The position numbers and the translations under genes were made by a program. The notes below the pieces were generated by a model. It was not told the origin of the DNA, ran no database searches, and saw nothing but the letters and a program-made list of their open reading frames with translations. Positions 13,793-51,402 of a stretch of 64,000 bases of DNA are shown piece after piece. Each line of letters opens with the position of its first letter. Position 1 is the stretch's first letter. The DNA is from Oscillospiraceae bacterium (GTDB taxonomy: Bacteria; Bacillota; Clostridia; Oscillospirales; CAG-272), in assembly GCA_015064855.1 (NCBI GenBank), contig SVRK01000001.1, forward strand, positions 14,196 to 78,195. The letters run 5' to 3'.

Positions 13793-13819
13793 ATAATCAA
13801 GAAGGAGGTTGTACCCTAT

Positions 13820-31667: not shown

Positions 31668-31679
31668 GAAAAGCCTCCT

Positions 31680-32660
31680 TTATGAATAGTAACGTTTCAA
31701 GTATTCTTGGTGATCCACTGGAATATCAAGGGATTCAGCTAATTCCTTTGCAGACATATAAATGATTTTGATGCCTGCATTACAGTTATTATCAAAAATT
31801 GCGGGAATTTCACACCGATGCATAGTATCTATAAAGAGTTGAGCTTCGTAGCGTTCTTCCGAAAGTGCGCTTTGATACTCCCATCGCGTATCCTCATCAT
31901 CTATAAATGCTGCCGGGAACTCATTTACAACATTGGTCAAGATGTACCAGTCATACTTTCCAGCCATAGTTCTTCCAGGATCTACTTTTTCTAAAGCAGA
32001 TCTTGTGACAAACGAGGCGTAGTTGTACATTGCAAGCGTGTGCTTAAACATTTGCGATGCATCATATCTACGGAAGGATACATCTTGAAGTAGGTGAGCC
32101 CAATTTGAGAACATCTCAAATGCATCTTTTGGAAAAGGAACTGCGGCTCTGTCAGGAGTGAAGTAGTATCGTTCCATAAAGTAACTCTTGCCAAGAGCTT
32201 TTGGTGATTCGAGCCATTCAAGGTTTTTCATTTCAAAAAACAAAGCGTTTCTATTAACACTATCGCTTAAAAACGCATCTACGTTTGCCGGCATATTTCC
32301 ATAGGCACGAGTGAGGAGTTGTTTCTCATATTCAACCGTGTATGTTCCTTGAGGGAGAATGCCTTCGGGCAAGATGCTTACCGAGTCATTCCCAAAAAGA
32401 TTAAACGTCATTGCCGATGAAGAAACTATGCTTCCCATTTTAGGCGGAAGTGTATAGGTCCTGCCAAATTTAGTTATGGTGCTTTCCTTTGTTTCACTAC
32501 CGTCTCCACGATTGTATTCTGCGATGGTTTGGGAAGACATCGGGCAAAATAAATTATTTCTATAGTCCTTGTAATAAAACGGACGGTGAGAATTCTGCAA
32601 ACTTGTCGGTATTGGATGCCTTTGCAAAATTGATTGCGTAATTTTCTCTCTAAGTGACAT
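31680..32660 (-). CDS. Putative PD-(D/E)XK-fold nuclease
   Basis: The internal ATG at 32660 follows AAGGAG. Motifs are SSSAMTFNLFG and NVDAFLSDSVNRNALFFEMKNLEW (D...ExK spacing). It is coupled to the WYL gene by a 12-nt gap containing an SD. Confidence 0.5.
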   Translation of the reverse strand: MSLREKITQSILQRHPIPTSLQNSHRPFYYKDYRNNLFCPMSSQTIAEYNRGDGSETKESTITKFGRTYTLPPKMGSIVSSSAMTFNLFGNDSVSILPEGILPQGTYTVEYEKQLLTRAYGNMPANVDAFLSDSVNRNALFFEMKNLEWLESPKALGKSYFMERYYFTPDRAAVPFPKDAFEMFSNWAHLLQDVSFRRYDASQMFKHTLAMYNYASFVTRSALEKVDPGRTMAGKYDWYILTNVVNEFPAAFIDDEDTRWEYQSALSEERYEAQLFIDTMHRCEIPAIFDNNCNAGIKIIYMSAKELAESLDIPVDHQEYLKRYYS

Positions 32661-32675
32661 AACAATCTCCTTATT

Positions 32676-32757
32676 CTTGTATTTGTGTTTATTATAATAC
32701 AAGTAATGGGACTTATTTGGTACATTACATTGTAACACAAAAAAGGAGTTTTGACAA
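32676..32757 (-). promoter_or_regulatory. Promoter plus 8-bp inverted-repeat operator candidate for the nuclease/WYL operon
   Basis: On the minus strand: TTGTCA (complement of 32752-32757), 17 nt, TGtTACAAT (-10 is the complement of 32729-32734). The inverted repeat CTTGTATT (32676-32683) / AATACAAG (32696-32703) lies between the promoter and the SD. Confidence 0.55.
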
Positions 32758-33631: not shown

Positions 33632-33818
33632 ATCACACCTCGTAAAAATAATGGTTATTGTCCTTAACTAATAGTATAGATTATTCCGAACGATCAATAC
33701 AGAATATATTTGGATAATACCATAACTAATGGTTGATATTTGGTGCATTTTATGATATACTGACAATTGATAAGAAATGTGGTATAATAAAAACAATCAT
33801 ACAATAGGAGGATTTAAC

Positions 33819-34352
33819 ATGGGAACAGTAGCATTCACAGGTTATAGGCCAAACAAGTTACCGTTTGTTGAAGATAAGAAGGATGAGTTGTACGTTGCGT
33901 TTCGTCAAAAGCTAAGACAAGTAATAGAACGACTTGTCGAGCGAGGATACAATGAGTTTGTTTCTGGCGTTGCTATGGGGTTTGATACTTGGGTGGCAGA
34001 AGATGTTATTGCCATCAAAAAGACGAATCCTGATATCAGACTCGAATGCGCTATACCTTGTCCCAATCAAGATAAGAATTGGCCCTTGGGAGATAAACTG
34101 CGCCGTAAGAAGATACTTCATCATGCTGATAGCAAGCCAGTTATTTGCGAGCATTACAGCGATCAATGTTTCCACATTCGAAACAGATATATGGTAGACA
34201 AAGCAGAAGTCGTTGTTTGTTGCTATGATGGGCAGAAAGGCGGAACGGCATACACGGTAAACTATGCGCTTAGGGCAGATAAGATAGTTATTCAGATCAA
34301 CCCGAATAATGCTTCTGTAACCATTATCAGCAGAAGAAATTTCGAAAATTAA
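33819..34352 (+). CDS. YpsA/YoqJ-like SLOG-family protein (DUF1273)
   Basis: The ATG at 33819 follows AGGAGG. Motifs VAFTGYRPNKLPF and FVSGVAMGFDTWVAEDVI. There are tandem extended -10 promoters at 33733-33761 and 33760-33788. Confidence 0.65.
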   Translation: MGTVAFTGYRPNKLPFVEDKKDELYVAFRQKLRQVIERLVERGYNEFVSGVAMGFDTWVAEDVIAIKKTNPDIRLECAIPCPNQDKNWPLGDKLRRKKILHHADSKPVICEHYSDQCFHIRNRYMVDKAEVVVCCYDGQKGGTAYTVNYALRADKIVIQINPNNASVTIISRRNFEN

Positions 34353-34369
34353 AAAAATCTTATCAATAA

Positions 34370-34410
34370 CAATAATTATTATTGACAAGCGAGGAAAAAT
34401 ATGTTATAAT
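34370..34410 (+). promoter_or_regulatory. Fur/PerR-type 7-1-7 box overlapping the promoter of the Fur-family gene
   Basis: CAATAAT-T-ATTATTG (34370-34384) is a perfect palindrome, and its central 11 nt equal the PerR-box core ATAATTATTAT. It overlaps TTGACA (34382-34387), which is followed by 17 nt and TGtTATAAT (34402-34410). Confidence 0.6.
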
Positions 34411-34443
34411 ACCGGAGTGCGATAACCACAGGGGAGGTTAAAA

Positions 34444-34839
34444 ATGACTACTGTAACCAGAAAAACACGTCACTCCGAAACAAGAGACAGGATATACGAA
34501 TATATGTGTTCGACCAAGGCGCACCCATCCGCAGAGACTATATATGCTGCTTTGAAGCCGGGCATTCCCAAGCTATCTCTCGCAACCGTTTATGTCAACC
34601 TTAAGCTCTTGAAGGAACAAGGAAAGATAATTCGTGTAGCGAATGTAGATGGAAACGAGCGATATGATGCTAATTGTGAGGATCACGTACACTTTGTATG
34701 TGATACTTGTGGCTCTGTCATCGACCTTATGGATTCGGATATCCAAGCTATCAAAAATTTTTGTAACATAGGCAAACTTAAAATCAACAGCGTCCAAGTC
34801 GTGCTGCACGGTGTGTGCGAAGGCTGCACTGTGAAATAA
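34444..34839 (+). CDS. Fur-family metalloregulator (Fur/PerR/Zur type)
   Basis: The winged-helix region is HPSAETIYAALK...ATVYVNLKLL. There are two CxxC pairs, HFVCDTCGSVIDL and LHGVCEGC. Confidence 0.8.
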   Translation: MTTVTRKTRHSETRDRIYEYMCSTKAHPSAETIYAALKPGIPKLSLATVYVNLKLLKEQGKIIRVANVDGNERYDANCEDHVHFVCDTCGSVIDLMDSDIQAIKNFCNIGKLKINSVQVVLHGVCEGCTVK

Positions 34840-34870
34840 TCAAAGGAGAACAGTTTCAACTCGCTATTTT

Positions 34871-35578
34871 ATGATCAATAATATTCTTATTGTTAACCAC
34901 AACATTGAAGAGGCAAAAAGTATTAAAAGCAGACTGGCTTCTTCAAACACAAACGCAGTCTGCGCTTATACTATTGAAGAAGCACTTGATGCCTTCAGTA
35001 GGATGAATTTTTGCTTAGTTGTTTTAGATGCTGCCATGTCCGCATCTGATGACCATAATATCTTGAAGGCTATGAGAGAAGCAAAGACAATGCCTATTCT
35101 GCTTCTTTCTTCTCATGCTGATCCAAATGAACGTGTACATGCATTTAATGCAGGAGCTCATGCATATATGGGAAGACCATATACTGACGAAGAGTGCCTT
35201 GCACAGGCGCATACACTTATGAGATTATATCAAGATATGAATCCGCAAAGTGAACTGTGTTACACCCTTGCGTTTGGCAAGGATCTTATTATTGATCCAG
35301 ACACTCGACAGGTTACGCTTCAAGGCGCGGAGCTGAAACTTACACGCAAAGAATACGATCTGCTTTTTTGGCTCGCAAGTAATCCAGGAAAGGTATATAG
35401 TTGCAGTCAATTATACGATCATGTTTGGGATGAATTTGCTATCGGCAATGTTGACGAGGTTGTAAAATACCATATAAAATCTTTGCGTCGGAAGCTCACA
35501 ACCACAAATGCGGAATACATTAAAAACGTTTGGGGCATCGGATACCGCTTTGCACAAACTGCGGAGCTTCGCGGCTGA
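34871..35578 (+). CDS. Atypical OmpR-family response regulator (degenerate receiver pocket), no kinase nearby
   Basis: The receiver reads ILIVNHN instead of the acidic DD pair. The phospho-site Asp is kept (VVLDAAM). The conserved Lys position reads GRPY. The winged-helix output has LTRKEYDLLFWLASNPGKVY and VWGIGYRF. Confidence 0.75.
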   Translation: MINNILIVNHNIEEAKSIKSRLASSNTNAVCAYTIEEALDAFSRMNFCLVVLDAAMSASDDHNILKAMREAKTMPILLLSSHADPNERVHAFNAGAHAYMGRPYTDEECLAQAHTLMRLYQDMNPQSELCYTLAFGKDLIIDPDTRQVTLQGAELKLTRKEYDLLFWLASNPGKVYSCSQLYDHVWDEFAIGNVDEVVKYHIKSLRRKLTTTNAEYIKNVWGIGYRFAQTAELRG

Positions 35579-37380: not shown

Positions 37381-37762
37381 GGGGATGGTAGAATTTTCGA
37401 TAACCTGCTGTGTGATTACATGTGAAGGCATCCCCAAAGCCTAACAAATTACAATTGAATAGTCTGATCCGGTACGTTCCGAAGCGCCGAGCGGCTATCC
37501 GTCTGTCGGCAACAGAACCAAGAGCACTGATGTGTGGGTGGCACCTGCACAACGCGATGACGCGCTGAGGGTATAATGGTACTTCCGTAAAAACGCGGCC
37601 CGGCCACAAGGAAGGCGGGGAGATGAGATTTCTATGGACCTGTTCGCCACAGGCACCGGGGAGGACGTTAAACTTAGGAAATCGATTTATGCTGTCATAG
37701 GTCGATAAGTTATCGAATAAATATTTGGTAACAGGTTAAAAATATAATCACACAGCAGGAGG
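37381..37762 (+). other. ORF-free structured segment bracketed by a perfect 15-nt inverted repeat (candidate large RNA leader or invertible DNA switch)
   Basis: CCTGCTGTGTGATTA (37404-37418) is the exact reverse complement of TAATCACACAGCAGG (37745-37759). The right arm overlaps the SD AGGAGG (37757-37762). A local helix is GGGGATG (37381-37387) with CATCCCC (37429-37435). The segment is more GC-rich than its flanks. Confidence 0.4.
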
Positions 37763-38023: not shown

Positions 38024-38046
38024 ATGTGAATTTTCAGGATTTTGCA

Positions 38047-38075
38047 TTGACTATTCAAGTCAAATGTGATATAAT
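38047..38075 (+). promoter_or_regulatory. Near-consensus sigma-A-type promoter for the recombinase operon
   Basis: TTGACT (38047-38052), 17 nt, TGaTATAAT (38067-38075). Confidence 0.6.
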
Positions 38076-38163
38076 GAATGCGTCAATGATCGTCGGTCTG
38101 GTCAACCGACATCGAGCAAAGCACTGTAACATTTTACCGTGATTTCAATCAGGAGGAAATGTT

Positions 38164-39795
38164 ATGCATCAAGTGCCTTGCAACGTCACATACCGTGCCT
38201 TAGCATATTACCGCTTGTCAAAGGAAGACAAAGGCAAGACGGTTAGTGACAGTATAGAAAACCAGCGGATGCTTATTCAGGAATACGTGAGCAAGCACGA
38301 TGAGATCGAGCTGGTTGGTGAATTTTACGATGACGGTTATTCCGGAACCAACTATAGACGTCCCGGATTCCAGGATCTTCTTGAGAAAGTCGAACAAGGA
38401 GAGATAGATTGTATCATCGTAAAGGATCTCTCGCGCCTTGGGCGTGAATATATTGAGACCGGAAGGTTCATTGAAGAACGCTTTCCGGCTATGGGAATTC
38501 GATTCATTGCTGTAACGGACGATTACGACAGTAACGCACCCAAGCAGTCTGATGATATCTTGATTCCTGTAAAAAACTTAATGAATGAAACCTATTGCCG
38601 TGATTTGTCCAACAAACTGCGTCGTCAGTTTATGGTACAAAGAAGCAATGGTGAGTGCCTTGCAGCCTTCGCAAGCTACGGATATCGTAAATCACCGGAA
38701 GATAAGCATAAGCTTATTATCGATGAGATTGCGGCCGAAGTTGTGCGGGGCATTTTTTATTCCAAATTACAAGGTTACAGCCAACAGGATATTGCTTCAA
38801 TGCTTACCTCTCAGGGCATTATGTGTCCCGCAGAATACAAGAAGCAAAACGGCATGAAATACAAGTCTGGCTTTAGTTCGACCGAAACCGGGCAATGGAG
38901 CCACATGGCTGTTACGAGAATCCTCAAAAACCGTCTTTACATTGGTGAGCTCATACAAGGCGTAAGAGGCAAGCCGAATTTTAAGGTAAAAGAGGTCAAA
39001 AAGCGTAAGCCAGAAGAATGGATTGTAGTTCCAAATAATCACGAGCCGATCATAGATCAAAAAGTCTTTGATATAGTACAAAGAATGCTTGAACGTGATA
39101 CGAGACGTTCGCCCGAGCAGGAGCTTGTTTTTCCTCTATCTGGAATGATTTTCTGCCCGGATTGCGGCAGAAATATTCGCATTCGCAGCGTTACAAGATA
39201 TAAGAGAAAATTCTACTATTATACCTGCTCAACTTATAAAAACGGCAGAGGTTGTACGAGCCACAGTATAGAAAAGTCAAAGCTCGAGGATATCGTATAT
39301 CGAGCAATAATGGTTCAAATCAATACAGTTGTTGACATCAATTCCATTTTGGATACGATTAAGAACTGCGACTTGCGTGTAGTTCGTATGAAAAAGCTGA
39401 AGGCTCAAATATCGCAGAAGGAAGCCGAACTGGAAAAATACAAGGAGTTCAAAAACAGACTTCTGGAGGCACTCAAAGATCAGCTCATCGAACGCGATGA
39501 ATATATTCAGATGCGTGACAAATACAGGGCGCAGGAAGAAGAGTGCCTTGAAGCAATCAAGGTGCTTCAGGATAAGGCTATTGAGCTTGAGTCTGAGGCG
39601 AATTTGGATAGCTCTTGGGTGGAGCAATATGCAAAGTTCCAGAACGTCCAAACGCTCACTCGTGAAATGGTTGTGTCTTTGATTGACAAAGTTATTGTAC
39701 ACGAAGGCAACGTCATAGAAATAGTCTTCAATTACAGAGACGAAATTGCCTATGTCGAAGAGCTTATCTCCGAAAGCAAAAAGGAGGTGAGCTAA
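38164..39795 (+). CDS. Large serine recombinase 1
   Basis: Motifs ALAYYRLSKEDKGK, FYDDGYSGTNYRRPGF and IIVKDLSRLGREY. It has a zinc-ribbon CPDCGRNIRIRS...YYTCSTYKNGRGC and a C-terminal coiled coil. Confidence 0.9.
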   Translation: MHQVPCNVTYRALAYYRLSKEDKGKTVSDSIENQRMLIQEYVSKHDEIELVGEFYDDGYSGTNYRRPGFQDLLEKVEQGEIDCIIVKDLSRLGREYIETGRFIEERFPAMGIRFIAVTDDYDSNAPKQSDDILIPVKNLMNETYCRDLSNKLRRQFMVQRSNGECLAAFASYGYRKSPEDKHKLIIDEIAAEVVRGIFYSKLQGYSQQDIASMLTSQGIMCPAEYKKQNGMKYKSGFSSTETGQWSHMAVTRILKNRLYIGELIQGVRGKPNFKVKEVKKRKPEEWIVVPNNHEPIIDQKVFDIVQRMLERDTRRSPEQELVFPLSGMIFCPDCGRNIRIRSVTRYKRKFYYYTCSTYKNGRGCTSHSIEKSKLEDIVYRAIMVQINTVVDINSILDTIKNCDLRVVRMKKLKAQISQKEAELEKYKEFKNRLLEALKDQLIERDEYIQMRDKYRAQEEECLEAIKVLQDKAIELESEANLDSSWVEQYAKFQNVQTLTREMVVSLIDKVIVHEGNVIEIVFNYRDEIAYVEELISESKKEVS

Positions 39796-41507
39796 TGGCA
39801 CGTAAAAGTAGGTTTGTAGATGTAAGCACTATTGAAGCCATTGAAACAGTGGTTTGGAAAACGGCATTTTATTTGCGTTTGTCAGATGAAGATGGCGAAA
39901 ACGTAGAACAAAACTCTTTGGGCAACCAACGCAAAATCTGTCAGGCTTACTTCAATAAGCTTGAAGACGTTGAGCTTGTCAGAGTATTCAGCGACAACGG
40001 TTATACCGGAATGAATTATGATCGTCCCGACTTCAACGCACTTTACGATGCAGTGATGAATGGTGAGATCAACTGTATTATCGTCAAGGATGTGTCTCGC
40101 TTTGGAAGGCACTATATAATGACCAGTGAATTCTTGCAAAGACTCTTTCCGAGTATGGGAGTTCGGTTTATTTCCGTAAATGACGATTATGACAGCCTTA
40201 ATCCTAAATCGGATGTGGAAGGTCTCTTACTGCCTTTCAAGATGATCGTAAACGATTCCTACGTTAAGGATATTGCCAAAAAGATACGTTCGAGCATTAC
40301 TTCAAAAATGAATGCCGGAGAGTATTTGCCATCAGCAAGTAGCATTCTGTACGGATACATTCGTAATCCTGAAATGAATACACTTGATATTGATGCAGAA
40401 GCGGCTCCGGTTGTTGTTCGGATATTTGAAATGAGAGCTGATGGCATCTCTTTCAACCAAATTGCAGATACTCTTAACAAAGAAGGAGTTCCATCCCCAG
40501 GAAGACTTCGTTATATGCGGGGAGTAACTCTCCATCCGAGATACGCAACTTGTCAGTGGTCGCGCTCGACGATCAGAAAATTCGTATCAGAGCCAACGTA
40601 CCTTGGCCAAAGAATTCACGGAAAAATCAAGAGAGATAAGCTGGGTGCCAAGAAGACAAAGCGTGATAGGTCGGAATGGCAGATTGTTGAGAATAGCCAT
40701 CCTGCAATCATTTCGCAGGAACTGTATGATAGAGTTCAGTTCGTTAACGAAGCCGAGCTTGAAAAACAGTCTCACTATTTCAGAAGAGCTCCGGTCACAG
40801 GTTATCGTGAAATTTTCCGCGATAAGCTATTCTGCGGGGATTGCGGATCAAGAATGATCTCTATCCGTTTTAATCACAGAATCAGTGACAATAAGCCATC
40901 TGAGATAAGGTACCAATGCAATGAGTTCCTTTACTCTGGTAGAACAAGATGCTTTAATCACTACACGAGAGAAGACGTTCTTGTTATGACGGTAAAGAAC
41001 GTTATTAACGGTCAGATTAAGGTAGCCGCGAGAATACAAACGGCACTTACGGCTTACAAAAAATCGAAGCGTGGCAATCCGATTGCAGATCAATTACAGG
41101 CAGTAAGATTGCGGCGCAAACAGCTTGAGGTTAAAATCGAAAGGTTAATCGAGGATCTAACTGAGGGCATTATCAACCACGAGGAGTATGAATATGCTAA
41201 AAGAAAATACGCTGACGAATACGATCTCGTTTTGATTGAGGAACAAGAAATCGAAAAACGCTTTAAGTCACAGCAGGAATCAGTTGACAGAGCTGAATTA
41301 TGGGTTGAATCCCTGAAAGCTTATAGTATGGTTCCAAAGCTTGACAAAGCAATCGTCGATCTGCTCATTGAAAAAATCATAGTGTTTCCGGATAATACTT
41401 TTCATATTGTCTTGAACTTTAAGGATCCTTACAAAGATTTTGCGTTCCTCTCAGACTATTTGAAGACAGGAGGAAGATCTAATGGCAGATCTAAAAAGGC
41501 GATTTGA
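39795..41507 (+). CDS. Large serine recombinase 2
   Basis: Motifs AFYLRLSDEDGEN, FSDNGYTGMNYDRPDF, IIVKDVSRFGRHY and CGDCGSRMISIR...YQCNEFLYSGRTRC. The ATG overlaps the previous TAA. Confidence 0.9.
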   Translation: MARKSRFVDVSTIEAIETVVWKTAFYLRLSDEDGENVEQNSLGNQRKICQAYFNKLEDVELVRVFSDNGYTGMNYDRPDFNALYDAVMNGEINCIIVKDVSRFGRHYIMTSEFLQRLFPSMGVRFISVNDDYDSLNPKSDVEGLLLPFKMIVNDSYVKDIAKKIRSSITSKMNAGEYLPSASSILYGYIRNPEMNTLDIDAEAAPVVVRIFEMRADGISFNQIADTLNKEGVPSPGRLRYMRGVTLHPRYATCQWSRSTIRKFVSEPTYLGQRIHGKIKRDKLGAKKTKRDRSEWQIVENSHPAIISQELYDRVQFVNEAELEKQSHYFRRAPVTGYREIFRDKLFCGDCGSRMISIRFNHRISDNKPSEIRYQCNEFLYSGRTRCFNHYTREDVLVMTVKNVINGQIKVAARIQTALTAYKKSKRGNPIADQLQAVRLRRKQLEVKIERLIEDLTEGIINHEEYEYAKRKYADEYDLVLIEEQEIEKRFKSQQESVDRAELWVESLKAYSMVPKLDKAIVDLLIEKIIVFPDNTFHIVLNFKDPYKDFAFLSDYLKTGGRSNGRSKKAI

Positions 41508-43074
41508 TTATTTAAGACTATCTTTGGAAGACGGAGATGTGGCAAGCGGCAACTCAAACGAGAGCCAGAGCATTGAGTCCCAAAGAAAATGTTGTCGTCA
41601 GTTTCGTGCAGAGTATCCAGACTTAATGGATGGCTTTGAAGAAATTGTTGATGACGGTTACTCCGGTACACACTTTGATAGGCCGGGAATAAAACGGCTC
41701 CTCAGACTTGTGGAGTTGGATATGGTGGAAGTTATTGTTGTTAGGGATCTTTCTCGTTTTGCAAGAAACTTCCTTGAGGCTGGATACTATATGGAGTTTG
41801 TGTTTCCCGCCCATGGAGTTCGTTTCATATCTATTAACGATGGATATGACAGCGCTTCGTATACTGATTCCAGCGCTGCGCTTCATATTGCGATCAAGAA
41901 CCTCGTCAATCAGATGTATAGCCGCGATATTTCGAAAAAGATCAAGAGTGCGGTCGATCTGAAAAAAATGAGAGGCGAATTTGTATATGGCACGGCCCCA
42001 TACGGATATAAAAAAGGCGCAAAGAAGAACACCATCGAGGTGGATCCAATTGCTGCCCCAACAGTATTCAGACTATTCAGTATGGCTTGTAACGGCAAGA
42101 CCATTACGGAAATTGCGAGAACTTTTAACGAGGAGAAGATTCCAACACCATCTATGCACCTTTCTGCAGTACGAAGCAAGAAGGTAAAGGTTTATCCAAT
42201 ATGGAGCTTCGAATCCGTTAGAAACATTCTGACAAATCGTATCTATACTGGAGATACTGTTCCGTTTAAGTCACACGTTGTACGTATCGGCAGTGACAAT
42301 GTGAAGTATATTCCCGAGGAAGAAAGGATTATCATACCCAATACCCACGAGGCAATTATCACTCGAGAGATGTACGAAAAAGCACAGCTTGTGATTAAGA
42401 GCACAAAGAAATCTCCGTCCAGTGGCATAAGAAGTCCATTGGCCACTTACCTTGTATGCAGTTGTTGCGGCAATCGTCTACAAAAAGGTAAACCAACAAA
42501 CAAAACATTCCTGTGTGCTACAGCGCGTTATGCTCCAGATAAAGAGTGTAAGCAGATTCGATGTGATGACCGTAAGATGCAGGAAATACTGCTCAAGGCA
42601 GTCCGCCAACAGTGTATGATGATGGATACTCGCATCAAGCATATCAAGGCTACAGCAAAAACTGTCAGAAGTGAAATTGAGATGCTGATGGCCGATATTC
42701 GTCTACAGCGTAGACTTGCGGAAAATGCTAAAGCTTCTAAGATGCGACTCTACGAGGATTATGTTGAGGGAGTAATAAACAAAGAAGAATACTCCACAAA
42801 GAAAGTAGAGCTTGCAGAGCAGGAACAGACTGCACTCAAGCAGCTTGAGCTCTTAGAAGCAAACCTTGCCGTGCTCAATTCTAATGTTGACGACAAAGAC
42901 GAGGTGGTAGAGAGTCAAGCCTTGATCGATAAGTATCTTGAGATCACCGAACTTACAGAGCCGTTAATGAGAGAACTCTTCAAAAAAATAATTGTTTATC
43001 CGGACGGCTCCATAAATATCGTTTGGAATTTCAGGGATATGACGGATGGCTCAAAAACAACCACTGTAATCTAA
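41482..43074 (+). CDS. Large serine recombinase 3
   Basis: Motifs FDYLRLSLEDGDV, IVDDGYSGTHFDRPGI, IVVRDLSRFARNF and CSCCGNRLQKG...FLCATARYAPDKEC. It overlaps recombinase 2 by 26 nt. Confidence 0.9.
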   Translation: MADLKRRFDYLRLSLEDGDVASGNSNESQSIESQRKCCRQFRAEYPDLMDGFEEIVDDGYSGTHFDRPGIKRLLRLVELDMVEVIVVRDLSRFARNFLEAGYYMEFVFPAHGVRFISINDGYDSASYTDSSAALHIAIKNLVNQMYSRDISKKIKSAVDLKKMRGEFVYGTAPYGYKKGAKKNTIEVDPIAAPTVFRLFSMACNGKTITEIARTFNEEKIPTPSMHLSAVRSKKVKVYPIWSFESVRNILTNRIYTGDTVPFKSHVVRIGSDNVKYIPEEERIIIPNTHEAIITREMYEKAQLVIKSTKKSPSSGIRSPLATYLVCSCCGNRLQKGKPTNKTFLCATARYAPDKECKQIRCDDRKMQEILLKAVRQQCMMMDTRIKHIKATAKTVRSEIEMLMADIRLQRRLAENAKASKMRLYEDYVEGVINKEEYSTKKVELAEQEQTALKQLELLEANLAVLNSNVDDKDEVVESQALIDKYLEITELTEPLMRELFKKIIVYPDGSINIVWNFRDMTDGSKTTTVI

Positions 43075-43081
43075 AAAGAAA

Positions 43082-43122
43082 ACCCCCGTTTTCGAACTGC
43101 CTTCAAGTTCGAGAACGGGGGT
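43082..43122 (+). terminator. Long hairpin terminator after the recombinase operon
   Basis: ACCCCCGTTTTCGAACT (43082-43098) pairs with AGTTCGAGAACGGGGGT (43106-43122) with one wobble pair. The U-tract is weak. Confidence 0.6.
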
Positions 43123-43319: not shown

Positions 43320-44303
43320 TTATTCGAGTTTTACTGTGTTGTCCCTATTATAACACACTCCCATTCCTTGCACAATTCCACCTGATTTATTTATAAGCTC
43401 AGTGTCAGTGACTTTTATTTTAAAATTTTTTGCACTACTGTTAGATATATCTATACTTGAAATTTGCACCTTGTATTTTTTTGGTGTTCTGCCGTCAAGT
43501 GTCGATAGAATATATGCATCTCCCTCTTTTATGTCCTCTTTAGATGCTACCTTTAGTAGCTCGCAGGATTGAGGGATAGAATTTGCCGAAAGATATCCAA
43601 AAACACCACAAGTGCAGTTTTTAGTTAATGTGCCGATTTTTTTTGATAAAAACGTTCCACGAAGCTCACCAGCTGAACCAACCTCACCTTTTATAACACC
43701 GTTGATATTTACATTCATAACAAGACCTTTTCCAACAGGAATTACTTTACCATTACTCGAATCACAAATTGCGTGTCCAAGACCACCAAACGAGAGGTCT
43801 TTTGGATTGATATAGGTTATAGTTCCTATGCCTGTTGTAGAATCCTTAACCCAAATACCGGTTTTATATTTTCCGTCCTCACTTGAATATTTCGGTTTTA
43901 CAGTGAATTTGATTTCTTTATTATTTCTAATTGCGATTATTTCTATAGGGTTTGCACCGGACTTATCAACCTCTTTAATAAAGGTATCTATTGAATTTAC
44001 TAAAACTCCGTTGATTCTTATAATTATGTCTCCCTCACGAAGTCCCGCCAGATATGCACTTGACACATTGTTTCCTCTAGTAGAAGAAAATTTTACTATT
44101 GTTAAGCCCGGAGAGGAAATTTTCACTCCGAACGGCATGCCTCCTGGGTATAATTCAATTTCAGAAATATCTTTATTTTCATTTGCATAAGAGGTTATAC
44201 TAAATAACGGTACAAAAAACAAAATAGCAATAAACGCAAAGGAAATTAATGATATATTTAATCTTGATTTTTGCATTTTTCTTGTCCTTTCATTTTTGTA
44301 CAT
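43320..44303 (-). pseudogene. spoIVB: spoIVB (S55 signalling protease), 5-prime two-thirds only, interrupted by the element
   Basis: It has a membrane anchor, a PDZ-like region GDIIIRINGVLVNSIDTFIKEV and a His region SFGGLGHAICD. It ends ...NKSGGIVQGM and then 13 unrelated codons, where the family has GM-SGSP with the catalytic Ser. The start is uncertain (ATG at 44303 or 44276; the listed 44342 is TTG). Confidence 0.8.
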
Positions 44304-44447
44304 ACTTAATTTGTGTAATCTTTTTGATATTATGTCTAACAAAATTAGAGGTGTGTGATAAAAAAATGCAAAATCGAAAAAAATAGGTTGAAATTTTTAA
44401 AAAAAATGATATAATCATTAGTAAACTAACAATTTTCGAGGTGTAAA

Positions 44448-44894
44448 ATGAAAAACGAAAACAAAGCTCTTGAAAATGGAGTAGTATCTCCTCTTGCGCT
44501 TATTAGGTGGGTAAGCAGCGAATATGAAGAATTGATTACCAAGGAAACAGAGGGACATAAAATTCTAAATCAAAAGGCTGTGCGTTCTGTTTTGAAAATT
44601 TTGACAATAAATAATGGTATTTCGCAAAATGAGTTGGCAAGAGAAGTTCATTTGCAGGGTTCAACTATTAGTGTTGCGCTTGTAAAAATGGAAGAAGAAG
44701 GACTTATAAGACGTGAAGCATCATCAAATGATAAAAGAAAAGTTAACGTTTATATGACGTCCTCCGGATACGAAATGATTAAAACGCTTGATAAAGTAAT
44801 TGACAAAATGGAAGAAAAAATGCTAGACGGCTTAACTGATAGTGAAAAATATGATTTACATTATTACTTAACTAAAATTTTAAAAAATTGCTAA
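44448..44894 (+). CDS. MarR-family transcriptional regulator
   Basis: ISQNELAREVHLQGSTISVALVKMEEEGLIRREASSNDKRKVNVYMT. Confidence 0.8.
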   Translation: MKNENKALENGVVSPLALIRWVSSEYEELITKETEGHKILNQKAVRSVLKILTINNGISQNELAREVHLQGSTISVALVKMEEEGLIRREASSNDKRKVNVYMTSSGYEMIKTLDKVIDKMEEKMLDGLTDSEKYDLHYYLTKILKNC

Positions 44895-44922
44895 AAAAAG
44901 ACTGCAAAACTGCAGTCTTTTT
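44893..44922. terminator. Bidirectional hairpin terminator
   Basis: GACTGC (44900-44905) pairs with GCAGTC (44912-44917), flanked by A-run and T-run. Confidence 0.55.
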
Positions 44923-44925
44923 CTA

Positions 44926-45207
44926 TTACATATCTTCTTTTATTGCTTGTTCCAGCCAAATTCCGCCAAGGTCAAGTGCTTCAAAAAGATCCTTTTTAAA
45001 CGCTTGCTTTCCCTTAACTATTTTATTTCTATCATTTGAGTGACATATTTGCACCATAATCATATTTGGGTTTTCTGATGCATCCTTACCCAAAATATTA
45101 AGTGTTAATATATATTTTTCGTTAAGGTTACCATAGCATAAAACGTCGCCATCTCTTACAAGAGGAAGTCCTTTATAAAGAACATATTGATTCTTATTAA
45201 GCTCCAT
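44926..45207 (-). CDS. Hypothetical protein
   Basis: The internal ATG at 45207 follows AAAGGCGG. I recognised no motif. Confidence 0.45.
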   Translation of the reverse strand: MELNKNQYVLYKGLPLVRDGDVLCYGNLNEKYILTLNILGKDASENPNMIMVQICHSNDRNKIVKGKQAFKKDLFEALDLGGIWLEQAIKEDM

Positions 45208-45288
45208 GTTAATACCGCCTTTCAATCTCAATATGTATATAATACTATATATTTGAAATTTTGTCAAGGCAGATTAAGTGTTAAAGAA

Positions 45289-45852
45289 TTAATTTTTTTC
45301 AATAATTGTTAAATCTGTTGGTAAAATACCGCTTTGGTTGTAAACAATTTCATTGATTTGAGCAACCTGACTGGCAAGTAGACCATCTGTACCTACGATA
45401 ACAGTTGCCTTTCCATCGCTTATAACAGCTATACAATCATCTATTCCTTTTGCTTGAATCAAAGTTTCAATATTTGATTCGTTTTCGATATCTTGTGCGA
45501 TTTGAGCTATATCCTTAAGTGCGGATTCAACAGCTTCCGGTAATGCGTTTTCACTCTTTGCTACTGTTTGCAAAACCTCAAGCGCCTCGTCGCGAGCCTG
45601 CTGACGTGAAAGAGCAGTTTGTGAGAAGTAATCGGATGCATTAGGGTCATTGTCTAAAACGTCGTTTAAATCAGTTCCGTCAAGGTCAATATCAACATCT
45701 GTGTCTGGGGCAGGGTTGTTATTTTTATACAATATGTAGTTCACGCATACAGCAGCGCCAATAAGAACTACTGCACAAATAACAACTAAATTTTTTGTGC
45801 CGATTTTTTTGAAAAATTGTTTGAATTTGTTTGGTTTGTTCTCTGTGTTCAT
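45289..45852 (-). CDS. spoIIIAH: Stage III sporulation protein AH
   Basis: N-terminal TM helix. Motifs YFSQTALSRQQARDEALEVL and ETLIQAKGIDDCIAVISDGKATVIV are typical of SpoIIIAH. It is the last gene of the operon. Confidence 0.8.
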   Translation of the reverse strand: MNTENKPNKFKQFFKKIGTKNLVVICAVVLIGAAVCVNYILYKNNNPAPDTDVDIDLDGTDLNDVLDNDPNASDYFSQTALSRQQARDEALEVLQTVAKSENALPEAVESALKDIAQIAQDIENESNIETLIQAKGIDDCIAVISDGKATVIVGTDGLLASQVAQINEIVYNQSGILPTDLTIIEKN

Positions 45853-45912
45853 AATTAAATCTCCTATTTTTTGATTACATTAAATTTATATTCACGCTAC
45901 ATAAAAATATGA

Positions 45913-46362
45913 CTATCCAAAGCTAACAATTTCAATTCTGTTTGAGGAAATGCCCAAATATGCGGAAACAAGCTTTGTTATTTTGTTTTTTGTTTCATCG
46001 CTCGAACCGTTTGTGCAGGCTATTGCAACTCCACGTACACTTGGGTAAATCTCTCCAACGTAAACGGGGCTTGTGTTATTGGTTATCGAAGAGAAATTTA
46101 GAGAGCTACTATTTTTGGTATATATCTCACCGCCCGAGGTATCAAGCGTTATAATAACGTTGACGTTTTTTATTCCTTCAATATTTAATATAAAATTTTC
46201 TAATTTTTCTTCAAGCATTTTTGTATAATCCTCACATGAAAACTCCTCCTTTTTCAATGCAACTTCGTTTTTTCCTTTAAACGAGCTAAAAAGAATTAAA
46301 ATAAGACCCAGTGCTAAAATGGTAATTATTATAATTTTGCTTTTGTGTTTTTTTATATTCAT
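45913..46362 (-). CDS. spoIIIAG: Stage III sporulation protein AG
   Basis: Synteny, plus C-terminal YPSVRGVAIACTNGSSDETKNKITKLVSAYLGISSNRIEIV. Confidence 0.75.
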   Translation of the reverse strand: MNIKKHKSKIIIITILALGLILILFSSFKGKNEVALKKEEFSCEDYTKMLEEKLENFILNIEGIKNVNVIITLDTSGGEIYTKNSSSLNFSSITNNTSPVYVGEIYPSVRGVAIACTNGSSDETKNKITKLVSAYLGISSNRIEIVSFG

Positions 46363-46368
46363 TCCTCC

Positions 46369-46854
46369 TTATTTTCTTTTTACTTCAATGTTTGGATCTA
46401 TGTTGTTTTTTAAAAAATCTTCTACTAGCTTTACATCACTCCAAGAAGCTTTTCCGGTTAAAGTAACGTTGATTTTGTTGATTTTCAATGATTCCATGTT
46501 GCTATCATCTAATATCAGTTGAACATATACCTCGTTTGAATCGAATTTGAATTTTTGAATAATGGTTTCCTTAATACCCTCGCAAATTTTTTCCTTGCTT
46601 GTGTTTATGATTAAAGAGTTTGATATTTCAATGCTTTCGGTTACAAAAATTTTCTCTACATAATTATTTACATTTTCTTTTATGCTTGCTATATCTGAAA
46701 TAATACTGCCAATTGGTGAAATTAGGCATACAACACATACAAGAGAAACTATGTAGTTGATGTATTTTTTTAAATGTGACTCTTTAGAAACAACAGAGTT
46801 TATAATTCCACCAGAAACTGCTACAGTAAGAATTGTTATAACATAGTTATTCAT
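46369..46854 (-). CDS. spoIIIAF: Stage III sporulation protein AF
   Basis: Operon position between AE and AG; two N-terminal TM helices. Confidence 0.6.
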   Translation of the reverse strand: MNNYVITILTVAVSGGIINSVVSKESHLKKYINYIVSLVCVVCLISPIGSIISDIASIKENVNNYVEKIFVTESIEISNSLIINTSKEKICEGIKETIIQKFKFDSNEVYVQLILDDSNMESLKINKINVTLTGKASWSDVKLVEDFLKNNIDPNIEVKRK

Positions 46855-47987
46855 ACTACCTCCGTTGAGGTTTTAATAAATATTGTTATTGCGAAAATAA
46901 ATAATGCACTTCCGGTAGCCAAAAGAGTAAGCATGTACGCGCAAAGTGAGTCTGCTTCCTCAAGAATAACGCTTTGCTTTTCACAATGCAAAAGTCTTGC
47001 TATAGATGCTAAAAGTCCAAAGCTGACTTTACTTAAAAATACATATATAATAATTGGAAGAATAATTAATGCAATTGAAATGATTGCAATAATGCCCGAT
47101 GCGTTTTTAATTAATGATAGAGATGAGGAAACCGTTCTTAATGCGTCGTTTATTGAAGCACCTACTATTGGGACAAAGCTACTAATCGCGAATTTTGCGG
47201 TTTTTATTGATATTGAGTCTGCCCCCTGTGCCAAAATATTTTTAAATGAAAAAATAAACATAAATATTGACATAATGAAAACTGTAACAGAGGTGAATGT
47301 ATTTCTTATCAGCTTAGATATACCGCCAAATTCTACACCGCCAAGAGCTTTTATACAGCTAAACATAAGACATAAATTTACCAAAGGGAGCATAAAGGCG
47401 AGAAAAAAGCTTTCAACTATGGAAATGAACAAGACCATTGAAGCATTAGTAATGGTAGCAGAGTTCACGTTCCCGCTCATTATTTGCATACTCGCCATTA
47501 TAGGAGCAAATGCGCTCATAGCATTACAAATTATTTCTAAATAAGAGCTTACATTGTTGGCTAAGGAATTACAAAGGTTAAAAACAGTCAAGGCAATACA
47601 GAGTCCGGAGCATATAGTAAAAGTATTTGAAAGTGCTTGATTAGAAAACGATGAACCAAGTATTTCAAATATTGAGCTTATTAGGATTAAAGTAAGAATG
47701 GCAGAAAAAGACTTTAAAACTATGCCAATACCGGAAAACAAATATTCGGTTATGTATTTAAAAAGGCTTTTTTCATCCAGTCCCTTGTCAAGAAGCTCTG
47801 AAAAGTCACCGTTAAATACGCCGTCCGGTAAAAAATCAATTACCTCTTGAGGCAAAGAATTTTTAAACTCCTCAAGCTCCGTTTCTATTGAAGAAATTAT
47901 CTCATCTTCAATGCTTTCAGCAAATAATGGGCGTGCAAAAGAAAAAAAGAAGAGAAGTAAAAATATAATTAAAAGTATTTTTTTCAT
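46851..47987 (-). CDS. spoIIIAE: Stage III sporulation protein AE
   Basis: It has a signal peptide, is a polytopic membrane protein of about 380 aa, and sits in the expected operon position. Confidence 0.75.
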   Translation of the reverse strand: MKKILLIIFLLLFFFSFARPLFAESIEDEIISSIETELEEFKNSLPQEVIDFLPDGVFNGDFSELLDKGLDEKSLFKYITEYLFSGIGIVLKSFSAILTLILISSIFEILGSSFSNQALSNTFTICSGLCIALTVFNLCNSLANNVSSYLEIICNAMSAFAPIMASMQIMSGNVNSATITNASMVLFISIVESFFLAFMLPLVNLCLMFSCIKALGGVEFGGISKLIRNTFTSVTVFIMSIFMFIFSFKNILAQGADSISIKTAKFAISSFVPIVGASINDALRTVSSSLSLIKNASGIIAIISIALIILPIIIYVFLSKVSFGLLASIARLLHCEKQSVILEEADSLCAYMLTLLATGSALFIFAITIFIKTSTEVV

Positions 47988-47988
47988 A

Positions 47989-48372
47989 TCATTTAATTAG
48001 GTTTTCGCACAAGGTAAACAAATTTTTGATTAGTGGCAACGACAGAACTAAAATTTGGGCTTTTCCAAAAAGCGTTATTCTGTTAGCAAGCGTGCTTTCT
48101 TGGGCATCATTGCAAACGTCTGCTGTTATTTGGACTGCAAACGCAATTCCCAATGCCTTTATTAGTGTTGGCATATAAATATAAACCGCAGTATTTTTTG
48201 AAATGTCATCTATAAATGACAATATAGGGTAAAAAATGGCAAAGGTGGCAACCGTAACAAAGCAAGTAATGAATATGCGAATAAATAAAGAATATTCAGA
48301 GCGCAAATTTTTAAAAATTATACAAACAACGAGTGCACAAAGCACAAGTCCGCACATTTTTATGTCGTTCAT
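47989..48372 (-). CDS. spoIIIAD: Stage III sporulation protein AD
   Basis: The internal ATG at 48372 (MNDIKMCGLVLCALVV...) is used. It is a small polytopic membrane protein in the expected operon position. Confidence 0.7.
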   Translation of the reverse strand: MNDIKMCGLVLCALVVCIIFKNLRSEYSLFIRIFITCFVTVATFAIFYPILSFIDDISKNTAVYIYMPTLIKALGIAFAVQITADVCNDAQESTLANRITLFGKAQILVLSLPLIKNLFTLCENLIK

Positions 48373-48373
48373 A

Positions 48374-48568
48374 TCAAAAATTGAACACCGCTGCAAGAGT
48401 ATTAAACAAATTGTCAAGCTCTGAAACAATCAAAAGCATAACAATAATTATTCCGGCTATTGAAAGCATAGTTGCTTGCTCGTCACGTCCGCTTTTAGAT
48501 AAAACCTGACAGGCGATCGAAACAAGAAGTCCAACCCCTGTAATTTTTAATATTAAAGAAATATCCAT
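48374..48568 (-). CDS. spoIIIAC: Stage III sporulation protein AC
   Basis: The ATG at 48568 follows AAGGAGAA. MDISLILKITGVGLLVSIACQVLSKSGRDEQATMLSIAGIIIVML is typical of SpoIIIAC. Confidence 0.8.
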   Translation of the reverse strand: MDISLILKITGVGLLVSIACQVLSKSGRDEQATMLSIAGIIIVMLLIVSELDNLFNTLAAVFNF

Positions 48569-48591
48569 TTTTTCTCCTTGCTTTTTAACTC

Positions 48592-49038
48592 CTAGACCAA
48601 TAAAATTACCATACAAATACCGATAAATAGCGACATTGCTCGAAAAACCTTTGTTTTGTTTGGGTATTCACGCTTTAAGGCCTCGATTTTTTTGTTTAAA
48701 AGCTCTAAATTATAGTCACAAAGTGACAGCTGTTCCTTTTTGAAGCCCTTTCCAATTGAAGAAAAGAATTCGCTAATTTTTTTGTCGGTACTTTTATCTA
48801 TTAGCATTTTTTTAGCATCATTATTTTCAATTAAATATCTAATTTCTTCGGTGTTTTTGTCGTATTTTTGATAAATTAGATCAATAGGATAAGAAAAATA
48901 ATCAATTTGAGCACGAATGTACGAAATGAAATCAAATATTTCTTCACATCTTTTTATTTTGAATTTGTAAGATTTTTCATAATAATAGCTAGCTAAAATT
49001 GAAGATGCAAGAATTAAAATTGAGCCTAAAATTTTCAT
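48592..49038 (-). CDS. spoIIIAB: Stage III sporulation protein AB
   Basis: Operon position directly after AA; matching size and N-terminal TM helix. Confidence 0.65.
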   Translation of the reverse strand: MKILGSILILASSILASYYYEKSYKFKIKRCEEIFDFISYIRAQIDYFSYPIDLIYQKYDKNTEEIRYLIENNDAKKMLIDKSTDKKISEFFSSIGKGFKKEQLSLCDYNLELLNKKIEALKREYPNKTKVFRAMSLFIGICMVILLV

Positions 49039-49956
49039 TCAAACCTCAGCTTTGTGCTCGTTTAATGTGAATTTGTATGTTTTTTCTCCGTATTTACGTT
49101 CAACACCAATAAAATAATCAAAAATTCCGCTGTTTATTAGTGGCTTGATTATTGATTTTACATCTAATTCTTCGTATCTGCTCGCATGGGTGGTTGCTAT
49201 TAGCTTGACACCGCTATGAGAGGCTTTTAAAATTGCATTCGCTTCTTGTTCACTTGAAATTTCATCACAAATTATTAACTGCGGTGTCATTGATTTGGTT
49301 GCTTGCTCAATTGCTAAGCCTTTAGGATAGGAAATATATGCATCACAGTTAGCGTTTTGGGAATAAGGAGTTATTATTTCCTCGCGTGAATCAATAACTG
49401 CAAATCTTATAGGTGATTTTTGTTTCCCCAATTTAATAACCAAATCCCTTAAAATTGATGTTTTTCCTATTCCGGGTGGAGAATATAGAAGAATTGATTT
49501 TTGAAAGCTTGTCTTTTCCAGTAAATTATAAATGTAGCTTGAAGCACCATCAATTTTTTGAGGAATTCTTATATTAATTGAAGAAACGTCTTTAATTCCT
49601 ACAATTGTTTTTCCTTCTAATACAGCACTCCCGCAAACGCCTGCACGTATTCCTTGTCCAACGCTTATATATCCGTCCTTAATTGTTTCAATATGTGCGT
49701 AAACAGAACCGTGACAGAGTGATTGAAAAATTTCATCTATTGAACTATCACTAACATAAATGTCAGTTTTTACATTTTTTGAGTCCGCTATAAGATAAAT
49801 AAAAGCATCCTTTTTAATTCTTATTTCATTTATAGCTTTGTATTTCTTTTCAAAACAAAATCCAATTAAACTTGTCCCTAAATCCTTTGGTAGAAACGAT
49901 AAAAGATAACTTAACGCCTCGTCTTTTTCTTCCTTTAATTTTATTTCGTATTTCAT
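49039..49956 (-). CDS. spoIIIAA: Stage III sporulation protein AA (ATPase)
   Basis: The P-loop is LLYSPPGIGKTSILRDL and Walker B is LIICDEI. It is the first gene of the eight-gene operon. Confidence 0.85.
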   Translation of the reverse strand: MKYEIKLKEEKDEALSYLLSFLPKDLGTSLIGFCFEKKYKAINEIRIKKDAFIYLIADSKNVKTDIYVSDSSIDEIFQSLCHGSVYAHIETIKDGYISVGQGIRAGVCGSAVLEGKTIVGIKDVSSINIRIPQKIDGASSYIYNLLEKTSFQKSILLYSPPGIGKTSILRDLVIKLGKQKSPIRFAVIDSREEIITPYSQNANCDAYISYPKGLAIEQATKSMTPQLIICDEISSEQEANAILKASHSGVKLIATTHASRYEELDVKSIIKPLINSGIFDYFIGVERKYGEKTYKFTLNEHKAEV

Positions 49957-50054
49957 TTTCAGCTCCTTAACTTGTCCTTTAGTTAATGATATTCATTTAT
50001 AAATAAAAAAATTACAAATTTAATTATGTTTTCTTAAAACGTTATTTTAAAAAC

Positions 50055-50082
50055 AAAAAAGCAAGGCGGAACCTTGCTTTTT
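50055..50082. terminator. Hairpin terminator upstream of the spoIIIA operon
   Basis: GCAAGG (50061-50066) pairs with CCTTGC (50072-50077), flanked by A-run and T-run. Confidence 0.55.
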
Positions 50083-50101
50083 CTAGATATTATGTTATAA
50101 T

Positions 50102-50602
50102 TTAATTATTAGTATTTTGTGGTATTGAGAAGGTGTGCAAAAACCCTTTTGAGTCAGCTGTGCAGATATCACCGCCAATAACTTTACCGCGGAAGGTTAT
50201 TACGTTTGCGTATACTGTGCCACTGTATCCTGGGTAGTTTGTCACTTTATACGTGTATCTTGTGGCGGTTTTCTTTCTATACTTTGAAAGATCAAGTCCT
50301 TGTTGCTTTTGTATTTCGTTATATTGAGACATAACCTTATCAAATTCATTTGGTATTGTTATTTCGCATTCTTCAATAACGTCATCCTCTACCTCCCAGT
50401 CATATTGCGCTAAAAACTTTTGCCCGTCACTTTTATTTTTCACATGGTCAAAAGAAATGTTTTCATTCATTGTTGCTATTTCTCTTGTGGTAGATTTTGT
50501 GCTTGACGGTATAAAAAACATCAACGAAACCAGACATATTACGGCAACTCCTATTATACCGAAAAATTTAAGTGTTGATGCTTTAAAAGAATAAACAAAC
50601 AT
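50102..50602 (-). CDS. Membrane-anchored protein, DUF4830-like
   Basis: N-terminal TM helix. The pattern FLAQYDWEV...ITIPNEFDKVMSQYNEIQKQQGLDLSKYRKK...YTYKVTNYPG resembles DUF4830, recalled from memory. Confidence 0.5.
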   Translation of the reverse strand: MFVYSFKASTLKFFGIIGVAVICLVSLMFFIPSSTKSTTREIATMNENISFDHVKNKSDGQKFLAQYDWEVEDDVIEECEITIPNEFDKVMSQYNEIQKQQGLDLSKYRKKTATRYTYKVTNYPGYSGTVYANVITFRGKVIGGDICTADSKGFLHTFSIPQNTNN

Positions 50603-50676
50603 TTTAAACTCCTTTTATCTTTGTTCTTACTAAATACTATTTTCAAAAAATTCAAATTATACCAAAGGAATAAAAA

Positions 50677-51369: not shown

Positions 51370-51370
51370 A

Positions 51371-51400: not shown

Positions 51401-51402
51401 AT

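Follow-up and report, generated by a model that had tools for sequence, protein, structure and literature searches.

Three co-oriented large serine recombinase genes as a putative integrase module for codon 305 of spoIVB in Clostridia

We analyzed a 64,000-nt stretch of contig SVRK01000001.1 from an Oscillospiraceae bacterium (hereafter, the window), in which three adjacent genes on one strand encode putative large serine recombinases (LSRs) at the edge of a large element whose end abuts the sporulation gene spoIVB. We refer to these genes as LSR1, LSR2, and LSR3, the internal, middle, and outer paralogues; their coordinates and those of the other features are given in Table 1. A sequence-only reading of the window had described three intact, overlapping LSR genes at 38164-43074, and we found the open reading frames (ORFs), the overlaps, and every motif that it quoted in the translations, namely, YYRLSKED/YLRLSDED/YLRLSLED, DDGYSG/DNGYTG/DDGYSG, and KDLSRLGRE/KDVSRFGRH/RDLSRFARN for LSR1/LSR2/LSR3. 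The stop codon of LSR1 and the start codon of LSR2 share an A (TAATG), and LSR2 and LSR3 overlap by 26 nt. All three proteins match the Pfam families Resolvase (PF00239) and Recombinase (PF07508), with E values of 1e-17 to 1e-25 (1e-17 to 1e-22 for PF00239 alone), and each has a weak Pfam match to DUF4368 at its C terminus. Matches to Zn_ribbon_recom (PF13408) were found in LSR1 and LSR2, and Pfam reports none in LSR3. The AlphaFold2 model of LSR3 (mean predicted local distance difference test score, 79.7) has beta-strands at residues 324 to 362 and a long antiparallel coiled coil at residues 363 to 428 and 434 to 486, so that LSR3, as modeled, shows the complete LSR architecture. Among proteins of solved structure, TnpX and the SPbeta integrase come nearest to it, with the SPbeta match spanning residues 61 to 505; TndX is about 31% identical.

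To survey the family, LSR3 homologues were aligned and one genome per species was scanned, which gave 290 matching stretches; the best 80 of these 290 LSR3 matches were taken with 10-kb flanks. The hosts of these 80 loci are Lachnospiraceae, Oscillospiraceae, and other Clostridia. The R-x-S, D-[DN]-G-Y-[ST]-G, and D-x-S-R-x-x-R motifs are present in essentially every complete sequence of each positional group. In LSR1, R17/S19, D56-G61, D88-S90-R91-R94, and C331/C334/C355/C364 are kept in all complete orthologues, while the catalytic motifs and C347/C350/C375/C386 of LSR2 are kept in 69 to 70 of 70. The catalytic motifs of LSR3 are kept in 77 of 77 orthologues, as are, despite the gap in its Pfam matches, its cysteines C326/C329/C345/C356. 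Since the catalytic and cysteine residues are intact in every positional group, none of the three is a degenerate subunit. The zinc ribbon that had been proposed for each protein is thus borne out, by Pfam and four invariant cysteines for LSR1 and LSR2 and by the four invariant cysteines together with the model for LSR3, and the model shows the coiled coil in LSR3. With a resolvase-type catalytic domain, a Recombinase domain, and a zinc ribbon with an embedded coiled coil, LSR1, LSR2, and LSR3 can be assigned to the LSRs on sequence grounds, and we predict that they catalyze attP x attB recombination with a staggered cut of 2 bp.

We found that the three genes travel together. When large ORFs were typed by their best match to LSR1, LSR2, or LSR3 in the 59 loci with at least 3.5 kb of upstream DNA, the order 1-2-3 on one strand was kept in 57; both exceptions look like decay, with LSR2 split in one (L039) and LSR1 missing in the other (L031). 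Positional orthologues are 37 to 63% identical, versus 29 to 32% identity between positions, a divergence that rules out recent duplication as the origin of the triplet, as had been argued from the window itself. The gap between LSR1 and LSR2 is -1 to +1 nt in 44 of 64 pairs, and LSR2 and LSR3 overlap by 11 nt in 40 of 72 pairs. These comparisons argue that LSR1-LSR2-LSR3 form a single ancient, conserved, and translationally coupled module.

In a separate observation, three unannotated "Bacteriophage sp." records from human feces in a phage collection (MT836038.1, MT837243.1, and MT837953.1) each contain two to three LSR3-like places, with identities of 47% and about 31%. Some sequences deposited as viral may therefore harbor triplet-type modules as well.

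The G+C content falls from 0.40-0.48 to 0.32 directly 3' of LSR3, where the neighboring ORF on the minus strand encodes SpoIVB, with a Peptidase_S55 match that covers profile positions 2 to 175 of 210. Compared with an intact SpoIVB of 352 amino acids (P0001), the window protein is 98% identical up to residue 305 (...GGIVQGM) and then diverges right before SGSP, a motif that we take, from B. subtilis SpoIVB, to hold the catalytic serine. Nucleotide homology to an empty site (L010) breaks at 43362. The truncated frame continues through 13 element-encoded codons to a stop at 43320-43322, and the C-terminal 47 residues, including SGSP, are gone. The intact gene of 352 codons is present in the same species in L010, L011, L115 (GCA_045589255.1), and L121, where a GH5 gene and sigG come next, and the exact window element was found on at least 23 contigs.

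Codon 305 is also where related elements end. In a tblastn search with intact SpoIVB against the 80 loci, a SpoIVB fragment beginning at residue 305 was found on the LSR strand in 68, usually 26 to 80 nt past the LSR3 stop codon; four loci have downstream DNA that is too short for this count, and a motif search added L039, L083, and, in part, L055. The fragment is followed by a gene for a Spo0A-like response regulator in L020 and L029, which fits the native spoIVB-spo0A neighborhood. A homologous element arm, GTTGTCCC..TTGACACACTC, recurs with constant spacing at 72 junctions in related loci, with GTTGT, 23 nt to codon 305, one base that depends on the type of element, and then TG. The resulting arm-to-core spacing of 24 nt is invariant in the 72 junctions, and the arm consensus AAAAAatTGTTGTCCCttanTtgacaCAcnC is common to all junctions at a fixed distance. 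From these alignments, the family has essentially one target, the NTG codon 305 of spoIVB, just before the catalytic-serine motif. An earlier suggestion that each recombinase serves its own att site is disfavored, as nearly the whole family has one target. We also found that dyad symmetry in attB is at chance level (7 of 24 matches, versus 6.1 +/- 2.1 in shuffled sequences), and its two half-sites are therefore different sequences.

A few loci depart from this pattern. The arm is followed by TG and non-SpoIVB sequence in L021 (at about 5302) and by TT and unrelated DNA in L037 (at about 4884), and no element arm was found in L085. These loci may represent secondary sites or decayed ends.

The window element differs from most of its relatives in its orientation. 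In the majority, the element end is joined through TG to the 3' part of spoIVB. In the window, the same arm is followed by CA and then by the target's 5' side in reverse complement (CATTCCTTGCAC, corresponding to ...VQGM), and the arm measures 24 nt up to CA, just as it does up to TG in the majority junctions. Four host backgrounds (the window/L001, L002, L013, and L014) have the identical 26-mer joined to CAT(T/G)CC..., and the SpoIVB proteins of three of the flipped-element hosts are 98%, 45%, and 41% identical to P0001. The junction thus places the window element, as read from these alignments, in reverse orientation, splitting spoIVB. A passage in PMC3783163, citing Ghosh 2003 and Smith 2004, states that the central dinucleotide alone sets the polarity of LSR recombination. 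For this reason, a TG-to-CA change in attP is the simplest reading of the flip; the spacing narrows the probable crossover to the TG/CA of codon 305. A palindromic AT crossover, which would give random orientation, is disfavored, because GTG or CTG stands at many junctions, the spacing fits TG/CA, and four of four flipped copies have the same orientation.

The other junction of the flipped element, attL, is predicted to read ...GGACTGCCGCT-CA-[element left end]. A walk to the left through L004, L102/L103, and L110 met defense-type cargo and no junction, homologues of the left-end genes on long contigs reached no element end, and scanning metagenomes for the host GH5 gene yielded a single locus that was of no use for the junction. 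In samples with the element, host-side contigs break off 86 to 198 nt before the expected attL, which suggests that occupied and empty alleles are mixed in the same communities.

We also asked what becomes of spoIVB on the far side of the elements. L030 and L043 contain two complete SpoIVB C termini of 40 to 42 residues, and a separate element arm stands before each of them; the paired C termini are 82 to 89% identical in nucleotide sequence, and the similarity ends exactly at the stop codon. Majority-orientation elements therefore probably carry a replacement 3' end of spoIVB on their far side. Such a replacement would rebuild both spoIVB and attB, so that a second element could insert. The flipped element has no such replacement at its right junction, and spoIVB is truly split here. 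Tandem spoIVB 3' fragments, each with its own arm, were seen at L030:11598-14173, L043:11820-15784, and L076:3156-4481, with 1 to 3.8 kb between them and no LSR genes. The segments between these fragments look like small LSR-less elements or remnants that have the att arm of the triplet in common and might be mobilized in trans.

Upstream of the recombinase genes, further parts are conserved. In 44 of 45 loci, the LSR1 strand also has a DUF6870 homologue, at a median of 148 nt 5' of LSR1; this gene, the first of the module, encodes a candidate accessory or directionality factor. The promoter between this gene and LSR1 is the top sigma-70 match within 35.5-44.6 kb of the window, and its description as sigma-A-like in the sequence-only reading was upheld (11 of 12 positions plus the TG extension). 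In the related loci, a promoter of the form TTGACA-17-nATAAT scores 10 to 12 of 12 in 52 of 57 upstream regions, usually 81 to 90 nt before the start codon, whereas control windows inside LSR2 genes never score above 9. Directly 3' of the -10 element is a GTCAATGA box, an inverted copy of the -35 ATTGAC, so that the two copies flank the -10; the GTCAATGA/ATTGAC inverted repeat can matter at the DNA level only. The leader hairpin has a constant YGGTC(A) loop on many different complementary, covarying stems, and a CCrGAAACAAATTTCCTG block is able to pair with the Shine-Dalgarno sequence; RNAalifold finds both the ATTGAC/GTCAAT pairing and the TCCTG/Shine-Dalgarno pairing. The LSR leader may be an undescribed cis-regulatory element, and the vegetative-type promoter is probably restrained by operator-like and RNA-level elements. 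The parts of the module are the DUF6870 gene, the promoter with its structured leader, LSR1-LSR2-LSR3, and the 24-nt element end.

A second structured leader precedes the DUF6870 gene. Its minimum free energy fold pairs the 18-nt inverted-repeat arms as the closing helix, with the right arm adjoining the DUF6870 Shine-Dalgarno sequence. L029 and L057 also have the pemK RNA motif 5' of the module, and blastn finds it there in about 13 further loci, but it is not universal. An earlier proposal that one LSR acts on the segment bracketed by this inverted repeat is unsupported, since the segment has the same orientation in L001 and L002 and the repeat arms fold around the pemK motif, although two independent copies make this a weak test of an invertible segment. 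Further upstream, sigma-like and HTH_16 genes 5' of the DUF6870 gene are not conserved across related loci. The same holds in related elements for the genes at 33777-35578, which are located in the element directly 5' of the regulatory genes and encode an OmpR-type response regulator, a Fur-family regulator, and a protein of the YpsA/SLOG family.

The element that carries the module is longer than 72 kb, comprising positions 1-43361 of the window and about 29 kb further to the left. We found no PHROG phage structural matches and no capsid or tail genes in the element, and its end was not found in a viral contig collection; on these grounds we rejected a prophage identity. No relaxase or type IV secretion system was found in window positions 1-43361 or in the 29 kb further left, a range that does not include the left end of the element. 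The cargo consists mostly of replication and repair genes and defense-type genes (Table 1). In window positions 1-33700 and in L102/L103/L110, it also includes genes for a HerA/FtsK-like DUF87 ATPase, YqaJ, a primase-like DUF3854 protein, dynamin-like GTPases, and a methyltransferase with SNF2/HEPN helicases. The host flank forms a sporulation neighborhood, in which the truncated spoIVB (43320-44342, minus strand) is followed at 44448-53394 by a gene for a MarR regulator and the spoIIIAA-AH operon; in the empty-site genomes, spoIVB is followed by the GH5 glycoside hydrolase gene and sigG, instead of spo0A.

Table 1. Features of the recombinase module, its target, and the carrier element, in window coordinates
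Feature	Position	Strand	Evidence or detail
Colicin-DNase and SUKH immunity genes	1886-2822		
Two GmrSD genes	2891-6849		
LexA-like repressor and UmuC genes	7067-9180		
AAA and VWA gene pair	11921-16096		
Small resolvase gene	19518-20348		
RecD2-like helicase gene	23333-25585		
WYL and REase-ARP genes	30681-32738		
Structured leader 5' of DUF6870 gene	37404-37759	+	Inverted-repeat arms and pemK RNA motif
18-nt inverted-repeat arms	37404-37421 / 37742-37759		Repeat search
pemK RNA motif (Rfam RF02913)	37573-37637		64 bits versus gathering score of 34.8
DUF6870 small protein, 84 amino acids	37769-38023	+	Pfam PF21757, E 3e-28
Sigma-A-type promoter TTGACT-17-TATAAT, TG extension	38047-38075	+	11/12 plus TG
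Conserved LSR operon leader	38076-38163	+	Alignment of 29 leaders
GTCAAT box	38082-38087		Inverted copy of -35 ATTGAC (38046-38051)
Hairpin GTCGGT-ctggtca-ACCGAC	38092-38110		Leader alignment
LSR1 Shine-Dalgarno sequence AGGAGG	38151-38156		
LSR1 (internal paralogue), 543 amino acids	38164-39795	+	Pfam; conserved catalytic and Cys residues
LSR2 (middle paralogue), 570 amino acids	39795-41507	+	Pfam; conserved catalytic and Cys residues
LSR3 (outer paralogue, adjoins element end), 530 amino acids	41482-43074	+	Pfam; residues; AlphaFold2 model
Intrinsic terminator of LSR operon	43082-43122	+	17-bp stem, 9 GC pairs, T-rich tail
Element end (P arm) GTGTTGTCCCTATTATAACACACTCC, recombinase-proximal half-site	43336-43361	+	Same 26-mer against different host DNA
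Putative crossover dinucleotide CA, complement of TG in codon 305	43362-43363		Empty-site homology and arm spacing
Host spoIVB, codons 1-305	43362-44276	-	Pfam Peptidase_S55; P0001 and L010 alignment

The account that we favor, with slightly better than an even chance of being correct, is that LSR1-LSR2-LSR3 are a single co-transcribed three-paralogue integrase module acting at one att pair, codon 305 of spoIVB. Such a module would integrate, and presumably excise, the element of more than 72 kb at this codon. The three paralogues would act together as a hetero-oligomeric recombinase at the one att pair, with different paralogues reading different half-sites: the element arm P, the spoIVB 5' arm B, and the 3' arm B', probably the same as P' in majority elements. 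A central dinucleotide altered from TG to CA would account for the flipped orientation, and the strong vegetative-type promoter would be curbed at its operator-like ATTGAC/GTCAAT repeat, by the leader RNA, or both. The case for a hetero-oligomer with divided half-sites is drawn from the co-conservation and coupling of the three genes, intact catalytic residues in all three, and an attB without dyad symmetry, with CcrA/CcrB as a precedent by analogy.

Several points weigh against this account. The requirement for all three LSRs is argued from sequence comparison, and our literature search turned up no study in which a triplet system was dissected functionally. Single LSRs elsewhere handle asymmetric att sites, so the missing dyad counts for little as evidence. 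In several hosts the flipped element works with B and B' swapped relative to P and P', which is not obviously compatible with a strict assignment of half-sites, and for the window element both the crossover dinucleotide and the identity of P' are inferred. In addition, the 80 loci were picked by LSR3 similarity, which places remoter triplets with other targets outside the sample. A bolder version, which we consider speculative and rather unlikely, holds that the integrase obligately contains three subunits with one half-site class per paralogue, and that the TG-to-CA change turned a usually harmless element aimed at spoIVB into one that splits a forespore-expressed gene, so that its hosts either lose sporulation or excise and reacquire the element through the germ line.

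The best-surviving alternative, which we also judge unlikely, is a division of labor with no hetero-complex. LSR3 would be the spoIVB integrase, while LSR1, LSR2, or both would have other roles within the element, such as biasing directionality (as an excision-specific recombinase in place of a small recombination directionality factor [RDF]), resolving multimers, or using secondary sites. The position of LSR3 next to the att arm, as in single integrases, is consistent with this, as is the sufficiency of one recombinase in most characterized LSR systems; each of the three, with catalytic residues intact, could act alone, and the arm is joined to non-spoIVB sequence in a few loci (L021 and L037). 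However, the co-conservation, fixed order, and start/stop overlaps in 57 of 59 loci suggest stoichiometric co-expression, we found no conserved internal repeat pair that could serve as a second substrate, and one target explains nearly all loci.

A lower probability attaches to a skin-like developmental switch in this host, in which the flipped element would keep spoIVB off until excision at the time of sporulation rebuilt the gene. This would fit the exact in-frame split at codon 305 with no replacement, the intact spoIVB in genomes of the same species, and the retention of the spoIIIA operon and sigG by the host, and sporulation genes are familiar hosts of LSR-driven intervening elements. 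The skin (sigK) and SPbeta (spsM) elements are excised in the mother cell. In contrast, SpoIVB belongs to the forespore regulons under sigma-F and sigma-G in B. subtilis and C. difficile (PMC3789822), with the likeness to our host drawn by homology, so that a skin-like rescue by excision would fall in the germ-line cell and strip the element from it. The conserved promoter is sigma-A-like rather than sporulation-specific, and most relatives appear to preserve spoIVB through a replacement 3' end, which argues that the module did not evolve as a switch. Some Clostridia also have a second SpoIVB homologue, C. difficile having two in all (PMC3789822). If there is no such switch, carriers of the flipped element may either not sporulate or rely on a SpoIVB paralogue.

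It is very improbable that the triplet arose as three elements, nested or accreted, that each brought a recombinase: accretion of serine-recombinase elements is documented, as in C. difficile 023_CTnT with three recombinases dispersed along the island, but here the LSR genes overlap between one promoter and one terminator, their order is the same in 57 of 59 loci from different Clostridia families (the co-occurrence survey that the sequence-only reading had named as able to reveal separately mobile elements), and no att-like junctions were found between them.

Triplet serine integrases have been catalogued but are mechanistically unexplained. The family described here is a large and diverse natural data set with one exactly mapped target and a conserved arm, and this combination makes the need for three recombinases directly testable with reporter substrates. 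If the heteromeric LSR with separately evolvable half-site readers is real, it would be of interest to integrase engineers. The sporulation gene spoIVB is conserved in gut Clostridia, and its catalytic-serine codon appears to be unreported as a target. Most elements seem to repair the gene with a 3' end of their own; the flipped variant does not, which makes it a candidate explanation for lost sporulation, or for an unusual rearrangement on the forespore side, in gut bacteria of the Oscillospiraceae type.

Among known systems, the developmental elements skin (sigK), SPbeta (spsM), and gin (gerE) are similar in being large, in having an LSR at the edge, in breaking the frame of a sporulation gene, and in the presence of uninterrupted alleles in the same species. 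The skin and SPbeta elements use one LSR plus an RDF, whereas the window element has three LSRs, a target gene that is of forespore rather than mother-cell type by homology, and, as its sole strong recombinase promoter, a sigma-A-like one that is kept family-wide; control might also act through the leader or DUF6870. TnpX and TndX (of Tn4451 and Tn5397) and the SPbeta integrase SprA are the nearest named or solved relatives and share the same domain order, including a DUF4368-like region at the C terminus; they differ in acting as single recombinases (SprA with the RDF SprB) and are only about 30% identical. CcrA/CcrB (and CcrC) of SCCmec resemble the triplet in having LSR paralogues side by side and one site in or at the end of a conserved gene, but there are two genes, the target is rlmH, and the host is a different one. 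Membership in the Ccr or XisF families was rejected, because LSR1, LSR2, and LSR3 score 41.7 to 107 bits against the NCBIfam CcrA/B/C models (cutoffs, 700 to 900) and 78 to 108 bits against XisF (cutoff, 375), below the equivalog cutoffs.

The closest parallel is with integrative and conjugative elements (ICEs) of streptococci, in which serine-integrase triplets cluster by position as external, middle, and internal (Ambroset et al. 2016, PMC4701971); integrase triplets are still annotated in S. suis ICEs (PMC13089153). These triplets overturn the limit implied in the sequence-only reading, of one LSR in phages and intervening elements or two in staphylococcal cassette chromosome elements. As in the streptococcal ICEs, three adjacent LSR genes on the same strand mark one edge of a large integrative element (here, near the element end at 43361), the paralogues group by position, implying an ancestral three-gene module, insertion is site specific within a protein-coding gene, and some members have no Pfam Zn_ribbon_recom match. 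In contrast to the streptococcal targets mutT, traG, hsdM, SSU1797, and SSU1262 (PMC4701971), the target here is spoIVB and the hosts are Clostridia; no conjugation module is seen in more than 72 kb of the window element, and there are extra conserved parts, namely, DUF6870, the promoter with its leader, and the 24-nt arm. In a literature search, we found no report of spoIVB as a target of serine recombinases or of conjugative or intervening elements, and no paper that reports the flipped, gene-splitting variant. Thus, the three-LSR arrangement is known, while the spoIVB target, the extra conserved parts, and the flipped form that splits its target gene appear to be new.

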